A stretch of 64,000 bases of DNA from positions 16,384-80,383 of the forward strand of contig CAZDLK010000002.1 in the NCBI GenBank assembly GCA_964506435.1, given 5' to 3'. The notes under the pieces are model-generated. The model was not told the origin of the DNA, ran no database searches, and saw only the letters and a program-made list of their open reading frames with translations. Source of the DNA: an uncultured Candidatus Bathyarchaeia archaeon. GTDB taxonomy: Archaea; Thermoproteota; Bathyarchaeia; Bathyarchaeales; Bathycorpusculaceae. Both the position numbers and the translations under genes were made by a program. How positions within the stretch are numbered: the stretch's first letter is position 1; every line of letters begins with the position of its first letter. Shown piece by piece: positions 40,511 to 40,650 of this stretch.

Positions 40511-40650
40511 GAGTGCATTAATGTGTTTATTATCCCGTCCCCAACCTTCATTTCGGATGGATTATCCAACCACTTATATAAAACTTGTTGCAACTTAAGT
40601 TAAATTCAAGTTGAATACCAAAAAAAGCCACATGGACGTGAACTGCCACA
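40511..40650 (-). promoter_or_regulatory. Promoter plus conserved leader module Q1 (TTCAACTTGAA palindrome, TTTTATATAA TATA box, TGGATAATCCA palindrome, conserved downstream segment); paralog of 45049-45189
   Basis: About 80 percent identity over about 140 nt with Q2. It lies 5-prime of the binding-protein gene on the minus strand. Confidence 0.5.

Follow-up and report, generated by a model that had tools for sequence, protein, structure and literature searches.

What controls the two halves of a nitrogenase-like/CobN gene cluster in an uncultured Candidatus Bathyarchaeia archaeon is a question raised by two similar segments, one upstream of each half. We analysed a stretch of 64,000 nucleotides (nt) around this locus (the window; positions 16,384 to 80,383 of contig CAZDLK010000002.1, assembly GCA_964506435.1), in which a first-pass annotation had taken the segments for a shared operator and possibly a cis-acting RNA leader, with a divergent PadR gene as the candidate regulator. 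The analysis presented here argues that both segments, copies A and B, are very likely promoter-operator cassettes of a vitamin B12 (cobamide) regulon, each carrying a 17-bp palindrome directly after its TATA box. Alignment of the minus strands of 40360-40720 and 45000-45260, together with a repeat finder, delimits copy A (40509-40650, minus strand) and copy B (45047-45189, minus strand) as one duplicated unit of about 140 nt, and a BLAST search of the whole genome aligns them at 81% identity over 138 nt (E = 1e-28), which bears out the earlier estimate of about 80% over about 140 nt. Identity falls to the random level of 38-42% outside the unit, and within it amounts to 94% in the operator, 80% in the core from TATTCAAC to the TATA box and 69% in the shared leader. 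The elements follow one another in the same order on the gene strand of both copies, with all the listed words in place, and open reading frames (ORFs) and Pfam confirm that copy B heads the exported-protein/fused-Nif operon and copy A the binding-protein gene, all as had been claimed.

Both copies have the TATA box TTTATATAA on the minus strand (40574..40582 in A, 45114..45122 in B), with the A-rich AACAAGT, similar to a B recognition element (BRE), as its 5′ neighbour in A (40583-40589) and AGCAATT in B. TATA box, A-rich BRE and gene stand in a fixed orientation, as expected of an archaeal BRE/TATA promoter. The palindromic word TGGATAATCCA, which the first-pass annotation had placed about 10 nt downstream of the TATA box, is present (40568-40558 in A and 45108-45098 in B, minus strand) but starts 5 nt after it. 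Three things had been overlooked: that the palindrome extends over a full 17 bp, that TTAAC-N4-GTTAA forms a second palindrome between TTCAAC and the TATA box, and that another contig holds a third copy of the cassette. In copy A the operator GGTTGGATAATCCATCC (40555..40571, minus strand) is an exact match to the 17-bp palindrome GGWTGGATWATCCAWCC; in copy B the operator GGCTGGATAATCCATCC (45095..45111, minus strand) has one mismatch to it and the same position relative to the TATA box. It begins 2-3 nt past TTTATATA(A) in both copies and would span about -20 to -3 relative to the predicted transcription start.

If the 17-mer is an operator then it should be found above chance and at promoters only. 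To count it we searched the genome assembly (2.09 Mb in 106 contigs, 85% complete) for GGWTGGATWATCCAWCC with up to two mismatches, using the reversed pattern and 30 scrambled palindromes as controls. The genome contains 10 sites, compared with none for the reversed pattern and a mean of 0.07 for the scrambled palindromes. A TATA-like box lies no more than 16 nt upstream, on the gene side, at nine of the ten sites (background rate 3.4%); a TATA-like word is seen 14 nt upstream of the remaining site, which is on the short contig C89. The exact 11-mer TGGATAATCCA occurs six times in the genome and adjoins a TATA box each time. A whole-genome scan for further copies had been proposed, and a dispersed repeat at many unrelated loci would have spoken against the first-pass reading; every extra copy was found at the promoter of a B12-related gene.

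On contig C9 a single operator, GGTCGGTTTATCCAACC (18616-18632), lies between hemA, cbiX/cbiC, cbiD, cbiT/E, cbiL, cbiF and cbiG on one side and divergent cobyrinate a,c-diamide synthase/SirC-like genes on the other. With one operator between the hemA-cbi operon and the diamide synthase/SirC-like genes, de novo corrin synthesis and the Nif-like/CobN cluster would share control. The same contig carries two tandem TATA-operator pairs 119 nt apart (30035-30051 and 30154-30170; about 1428-1563 of locus L003) in front of a ChlI/ChlD fusion gene, which is followed by a second importer and a second CobN. Operators also head a BtuF-like transporter (btuFCD) followed by cobT and cobS, an operon for an energy-coupling factor (ECF) S-component and a DUF4430 protein (both by Pfam), a lone BtuF-like binding protein, and a third CobN gene. 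HemA, CbiD, CbiL, the diamide synthase, CobT and CobS all exceed the curated NCBIfam cut-offs. DUF4430 is reportedly linked to transcobalamin in its Pfam/InterPro description, and the protein has no sequence relative in the PDB. Judged by the genes behind them, the ten promoters are a regulon for cobamide (B12) synthesis, uptake and salvage, of which the nitrogenase-like operon is a member. The earlier idea of a shared operator that co-regulates both halves of the cluster is borne out to the extent that one 17-bp palindrome sits on both promoters and on those of other B12 genes.

Some further features of the regulon deserve mention. Contigs C2, C9 and C28 together encode three CobN paralogues (about 1250 aa), one ChlI/ChlD fusion and four BtuF-like binding proteins, all of them placed under an operator by position. 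The host is an anaerobe, and encodes CbiX beside the three CobN and ChlI/ChlD. The assembly, which is 85% complete, yielded no cbiM gene. The tandem-operator layout of the ChlI/ChlD promoter recurs in another genome of the same genus, and the divergent neighbour is a gene for a CobD/HisC-like aminotransferase.

A functional operator should moreover be kept at orthologous promoters in other taxa. We scored 41 relatives from across the order, at up to one mismatch to the 17-mer, and 201 genomes from the phylum. The 17-mer is present in 32 of the 41 relatives (3 for the control pattern) and in 62 of the 201 phylum genomes (7 for the control). In at least 22 of 30 relatives' loci it lies directly 5′ of the ECF-S/DUF4430 operon, and in others it precedes BtuF-like genes. 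An exact search of a public genome collection returned at least 54 archaeal and at least 26 bacterial loci. Among the matches listed, B12-type genes lie within 2.5 kb at 38 of the 54 archaeal loci, whereas none of the 26 bacterial loci has such a neighbour and most bacterial occurrences fall inside ORFs. The listed archaeal matches come from Bathyarchaeia, Nitrososphaeria, Conexivisphaerales, Caldarchaeum, Korarchaeia, Methanosuratincola, Methanomassiliicoccales, Methanomethylophilaceae and others, and the operator spans at least two archaeal phyla. The target genes thus make up one pathway, and orthologous promoters in other taxa have retained the site. At six Methanomassiliicoccales loci the exact 17-mer is mostly intergenic, and no neighbour within 2.5 kb matches the B12 reference proteins.

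The arrangement of promoter and operator is conserved as well. At 65 distinct TATA-linked sites the polarity is constantly TATA box, operator, gene; the gap between TATA box and operator is 1-3 nt at 41 of them, with 3 nt (27 sites) and 1 nt (10 sites) the commonest values, and in many cases 0-8 nt separate the operator from the start codon. Since this polarity is fixed, plus-strand transcription from the nearly symmetric TATA box, which would be antisense and had been left open at first pass, is disfavoured. Operator-rich genomes occur in other families of the phylum, one with 11 sites and two with 7 each, the usual number being 1-2. At six relatives' loci the ECF-S/DUF4430 promoter has a different upstream word, TTCGAAA(N2-3)TTATAT, that abuts the operator, and its start codon lies 7-10 nt past the operator, so that these mRNAs would be nearly leaderless.

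Beyond the operator, copies A and B share a composite cassette with the ChlI/ChlD promoter. It consists of (T)TATTCAAC, a gap of 5-6 nt, TTAAC-N4-GTTAA, another 5-6 nt, the TATA box and the operator. The upstream element of copy A (40590..40618, minus strand) is made up of GTATTCAAC, which includes the palindromic word TTCAACTTGAA, and a worn palindrome, TTAACTTAAGTTgc, while that of copy B (45130..45158, minus strand) combines GTATTCAAC with the intact TTAAC-TTTA-GTTAA. The word TTCAACTTGAA (40615-40605 in A, 45155-45145 in B, minus strand) is part of the first cassette box and is not retained as a palindrome elsewhere; TTAAC-N4-GTTAA is retained as a palindrome in other cassettes. The three cassette copies of this genome are similar over more than 60 nt, and all are promoter-positioned and gene-oriented. 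In other genera of the family the cassette stands before ChlI/ChlD, cbiM (protein start MHIMEG), binding-protein/CobN and NifHD genes, and one Bathyarchaeota metagenome-assembled genome has three cassettes inside a homologous cluster. By exact matching, 5 of 25 other genomes of the family have it, compared with none of 95 genomes from the other families of the order, and the ECF-S promoters are without it. TTAAC-N4-GTTAA may be the site of a second factor; a second, family-specific input seems a reasonable guess.

The simplest reading of the A/B similarity is that such a cassette gave rise to both copies by being duplicated, with its 5′ leader and start codon included, and that this end part has drifted since. 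In related cassettes ATGCA is the start codon of ChlI/ChlD (ATGCAT, ATGCAG) or of cbiM (ATGCAC), from which we infer that the ATGCA at the end of the A and B leaders derives from the start codon of a cassette gene. With leader and start codon copied along, the resemblance of the two leaders would be inherited sequence and not functional RNA. We also considered whether the leaders are a remnant of the 5′ end of a ChlI/ChlD coding region, and found the alignment past the purine-rich block unconvincing.

How would such a cassette work? In the mechanism that we propose, the palindrome would be occupied, when cobamide is sufficient, by a dimeric repressor of the winged-helix type, with DUF4443/PH0730 as the most probable family. 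From its position between TATA box and start, this repressor would block the recruitment of RNA polymerase. A shortage of cobamide would then turn on all units together, both halves of the cluster included, and in the family-specific cassette TATTCAAC and TTAAC-N4-GTTAA upstream of the TATA box may receive a second input. Repression is what we infer from the position of the site, and the parts of the proposal differ in strength. That a DUF4443 protein reads the operator is the option towards which we lean, if slightly; on cobamide as the signal our judgement is evenly balanced.

The case for DUF4443 begins with the last gene of the copy A unit (32027..32707, minus strand), whose helix-turn-helix product was the other candidate named at first pass. 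It encodes a winged-helix protein with 33.2 bits to PF14544 (DUF4443; cut-off 27) that scores slightly under the cut-offs for PF22167 and PF21715. The protein aligns over residues 30-204, and thus both domains, with the uncharacterised protein PH0730 (PDB 2P8T, E = 1e-7), which places it in the DUF4443/PH0730 family, N-terminal PH0730-like/CggR_N helix-turn-helix domain included. No recognised B12-binding domain was seen in it. A DUF4443 gene is divergent from or adjoins the operator at eleven loci, and in seven genomes lies 1-9 kb from a site. Among the matches listed for the exact 17-mer, 9 of 54 archaeal loci have one within 2.5 kb, compared with a rough expectation of 0.25% per locus for a single-copy gene. 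Linkage, and linkage only, of DUF4443 and operator therefore exceeds chance across lineages. In the literature collection that was searched, no paper mentions DUF4443.

In the tree, the window's DUF4443 copy is a long-branch duplicate nested within the family's universal clade, which marks it as a fast-evolving extra paralogue. The universal gene is convergent with a gene for a GPN-loop GTPase at 28 of 29 relatives' loci and likewise in this genome (contig C12, 33948-34571). We asked whether operator-linked and GPN-linked DUF4443 genes form two functional clades and rejected this, as the tree tracks taxonomy and three loci (L153, L180, L188) have both neighbours, with the GTPase gene and the operator plus ECF-S on opposite sides. 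Since these three carry both, the two arrangements look like a single orthologous gene. The extra paralogue was also tried as reader of the upstream palindrome and discarded, because three genomes carry the cassette but a single DUF4443 gene.

Several observations weigh against the reading of A and B as B12-regulon cassettes under a DUF4443 repressor. DUF4443 is found in 166 of the 201 phylum genomes, including lineages in which the motif was not found, and two operator-bearing genomes that are 95-96% complete gave no DUF4443 match. The family's universal copy adjoins the GPN-loop GTPase gene, and no operator lies within 1.5 kb of it. Some members of the regulon, such as cbiMNQO and the chelatases, would be compatible with a cobalt-responsive signal or another one; the reading does not account for the upstream palindrome TTAAC-N4-GTTAA; and the transcription starts of A and B are predicted from TATA spacing only. 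With these points in mind, we put forward tentatively, as possible rather than probable, a more far-reaching version: DUF4443/PH0730 proteins could be direct corrinoid-sensing repressors and, in Thermoproteota as well as at least Methanomassiliicoccales, an archaeal equivalent of the bacterial B12 riboswitch, with the upstream palindrome as a separate input confined to the family's cobalt-import, chelatase, binding-protein and nitrogenase-like promoters.

The cobalt-related targets suggest an alternative in which the same operator is read by a cobalt- or nickel-sensing regulator and the regulon follows metal supply. Cassettes of the A/B type do head cobalt importer genes (cbiM, at four loci) and cobalt chelatase genes. 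However, the target most conserved across lineages is the ECF S-component/DUF4430 operon, together with BtuF-like importers, which is corrinoid-type uptake, and the nucleotide-loop genes cobT and cobS as well as CbiZ belong to the regulon without any metal logic. The presence of cbiMNQO does not discriminate, as bacterial B12 riboswitch regulons contain it too (PMC2667541). No gene of the DtxR, NikR or ArsR type was seen linked to the sites. We regard control by metal as unlikely.

Less likely still is that the palindrome serves activation, or belongs to the core promoter, instead of binding a repressor. Some archaeal regulators are said to activate or repress according to the position of their site, as is reportedly established for the TrmB family. 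The site described here occupies the interval between TATA box and predicted start with a fixed gap of 1-3 nt, and that position reportedly represses in characterised archaeal systems: for MDR1, Phr, NrpR, and TrmB on the trehalose/maltose (TM) promoter, binding between TATA box and start is said to give repression. A core-promoter element would not be expected to be limited to one functional gene set, as this site is.

The RNA-leader half of the earlier proposal, that the conserved stretch past the TATA box is a riboswitch or attenuator common to both transcripts, has fared worse, and we now think it very improbable. Its attraction is plain, as bacterial B12 genes are controlled by riboswitches and the roughly 46 nt past the operator are 69% identical between A and B. 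The shared leader (40509..40554 in A, 45047..45094 in B, both minus strand) has a purine-rich block and, as had been reported, ends in ATGCA in both copies (40518-40514 in A, where the A/B similarity stops, and 45056-45052 in B). Copy A continues with a specific 5′ leader of 155 nt (40354..40508, minus strand) to the binding-protein ATG at 40353; for this extension, given at first pass as about 160 nt with mutually exclusive hairpins, the alternative hairpin words TTGGAAA/TTTCCAA and GAAACA/TGTTTC are indeed present, but folding is no better than that of shuffled sequence. The copy A leader has a z-score of +1.12, with 171 of 200 shuffles folding at least as well, and the copy B leader one of +0.82 (160 of 200). 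The consensus fold of the shared leader reaches -0.15 kcal/mol with a positive folding term, from two sequences only, on which covariation has no power. No Rfam family, the search for which had been recommended, matches anywhere in the window at gathering scores, and with E-values up to 10 both leaders gave two chance snoRNA matches only.

Conservation points the same way. The shared leader is the least conserved segment of the duplicated unit, whose conserved part lies mostly upstream of the predicted transcription start, and no counterpart of the leader was found in other genomes, unlike the untranscribed part, which does recur there. At most related sites a start codon 0-8 nt past the operator leaves no room for such an RNA. 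In the copy A leader ATGCA opens an upstream ORF of 52 codons that ends within the ribosome-binding site; as a gene it was rejected, having no homologue in the 41 relatives.

The first-pass annotation had named the divergent PadR gene (45242-45718) as a candidate regulator, whose protein would then bind the shared palindromes and control both units. The gene does begin 131 nt from the copy B operator on the opposite strand, but no PadR homologue was found in the homologous Nif-like loci, nor beside operators in relatives or public archaeal loci, about 150 related loci in all having been screened by BLAST with PadR as reference. The distribution of the operator over at least two archaeal phyla likewise counts against PadR, as do the gene's own three CGATAT boxes, spaced by 14 nt (45209-45243), and we now consider this assignment highly improbable. 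These boxes (CGATAT(C/T); TTAGCGATATC, TTATTCGATATC and TTAGGCGATATT at 45205-45245) sit just 5′ of, and run into, the PadR start (ATG at 45245), are unrelated to the 17-mer, and are probably PadR's own autoregulatory operator.

Hardly credible, finally, is a small mobile or dispersed repeat without a regulatory role as the source of the segments: the similarity of three cassette copies over more than 60 nt in one genome would fit it, but there are three copies only, all promoter-positioned in gene orientation at B12-type promoters and not at many unrelated loci as for a miniature inverted-repeat transposable element, terminal inverted repeats and target duplications are absent, and orthologous promoters of other genera show the same layout.

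The preferred reading of A and B as B12-regulon cassettes thus concerns two transcription units. The copy B unit (40705..45009, minus strand) encodes, by Pfam, an exported DOMON protein, a NifH-NifD-like fusion and a NifD/K-like subunit. The copy A unit (32027..40353, minus strand) encodes, by Pfam and NCBIfam, a BtuF-like binding protein, a FecCD permease, an ATP-binding cassette (ABC) ATPase, CobN, CbiZ and the winged-helix/DUF4443 protein. Between the units, in 40651-40707, the NifK-like stop codon TAG (40707-40705) is followed by the palindrome ACGCG-TG-CGCGT, the T-rich TTTCTTTTTTCTTTTC and a T7 run. The T7 run is held by the upstream flank of copy A (40619..40650, minus strand), and the corresponding flank of copy B is at 45159..45189 (minus strand). 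This zone, 3′ of the NifK-like gene and upstream of copy A, looks like an archaeal terminator that would separate the two units, and its T-rich stretches after the stop codon fit two separate transcription units.

To our knowledge archaea make and use B12 without B12 riboswitches, and we know of no archaeal B12 regulator that has been characterised. For such a regulator the locus provides a defined operator of 17 bp, together with some ten target promoters and a few candidate proteins. If DUF4443 proteins were corrinoid repressors they would constitute a new class of B12 sensor, and a separate input through the upstream palindrome would link the fused nitrogenase-like enzyme, itself uncharacterised, with corrinoid metabolism. 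That this enzyme and three CobN/ChlID chelatase sets appear to share control with the cbi genes is the best available hint to their function. The duplicated cassette also exemplifies how a regulated promoter may spread inside a gene cluster. New in the present work are a set of ten promoters that takes in the de novo cbi genes, the composite cassette, the history of the A/B duplication and the negative result on the RNA leader.

A DNA signal for archaeal B12 genes has reportedly been predicted before: the 'CBL-box', said to have been described by Rodionov, Vitreschak, Mironov and Gelfand in J Biol Chem in 2003, would mark where a hypothetical B12 regulator of some archaea binds. Like GGWTGGATWATCCAWCC, the CBL-box is reportedly a DNA signal and not a riboswitch, found by comparative genomics upstream of archaeal cobalamin synthesis and transport genes. 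The 17-mer with its constant position behind the TATA box, the upstream palindrome specific to the family and the DUF4443 link are features of the present analysis and were not taken from the CBL-box work. Protein-based control tied to B12 is also known from bacterial factors of the CarH/LitR and AerR type. These use B12 as a light or redox cofactor through a standard B12-binding or SCHIC domain and act on carotenoid or photosystem targets, whereas here the B12 genes themselves would be targeted by a candidate protein without a recognised B12-binding domain.

Closer in form are the NrpR operator (reportedly GGAA-N6-TTCC, on methanogen nif and glnA promoters) and the TrmB/TrmBL1 sites of Thermococcales, which are likewise said to be short palindromes just past the TATA box that recur on the promoters of one pathway. 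They lead one to expect a dimeric helix-turn-helix protein that blocks polymerase recruitment; sequence, pathway and candidate family (the uncharacterised DUF4443/PH0730) differ in the putative operator described here. Closer in content is the bacterial cobalamin riboswitch regulon (RF00174), which has the same members, namely cbi/cob synthesis, btuFCD, ECF-type and cbiMNQO importers and salvage genes, and the same presumed logic of being off when the cofactor is sufficient. In contrast to the riboswitch, which acts through RNA, what we describe is a putative DNA operator read by a protein at initiation, with no Rfam match and no fold signal. By analogy, then, the regulon is in function the counterpart of the bacterial B12 riboswitch regulon, acting on DNA, and in form an ordinary archaeal repressor operator.

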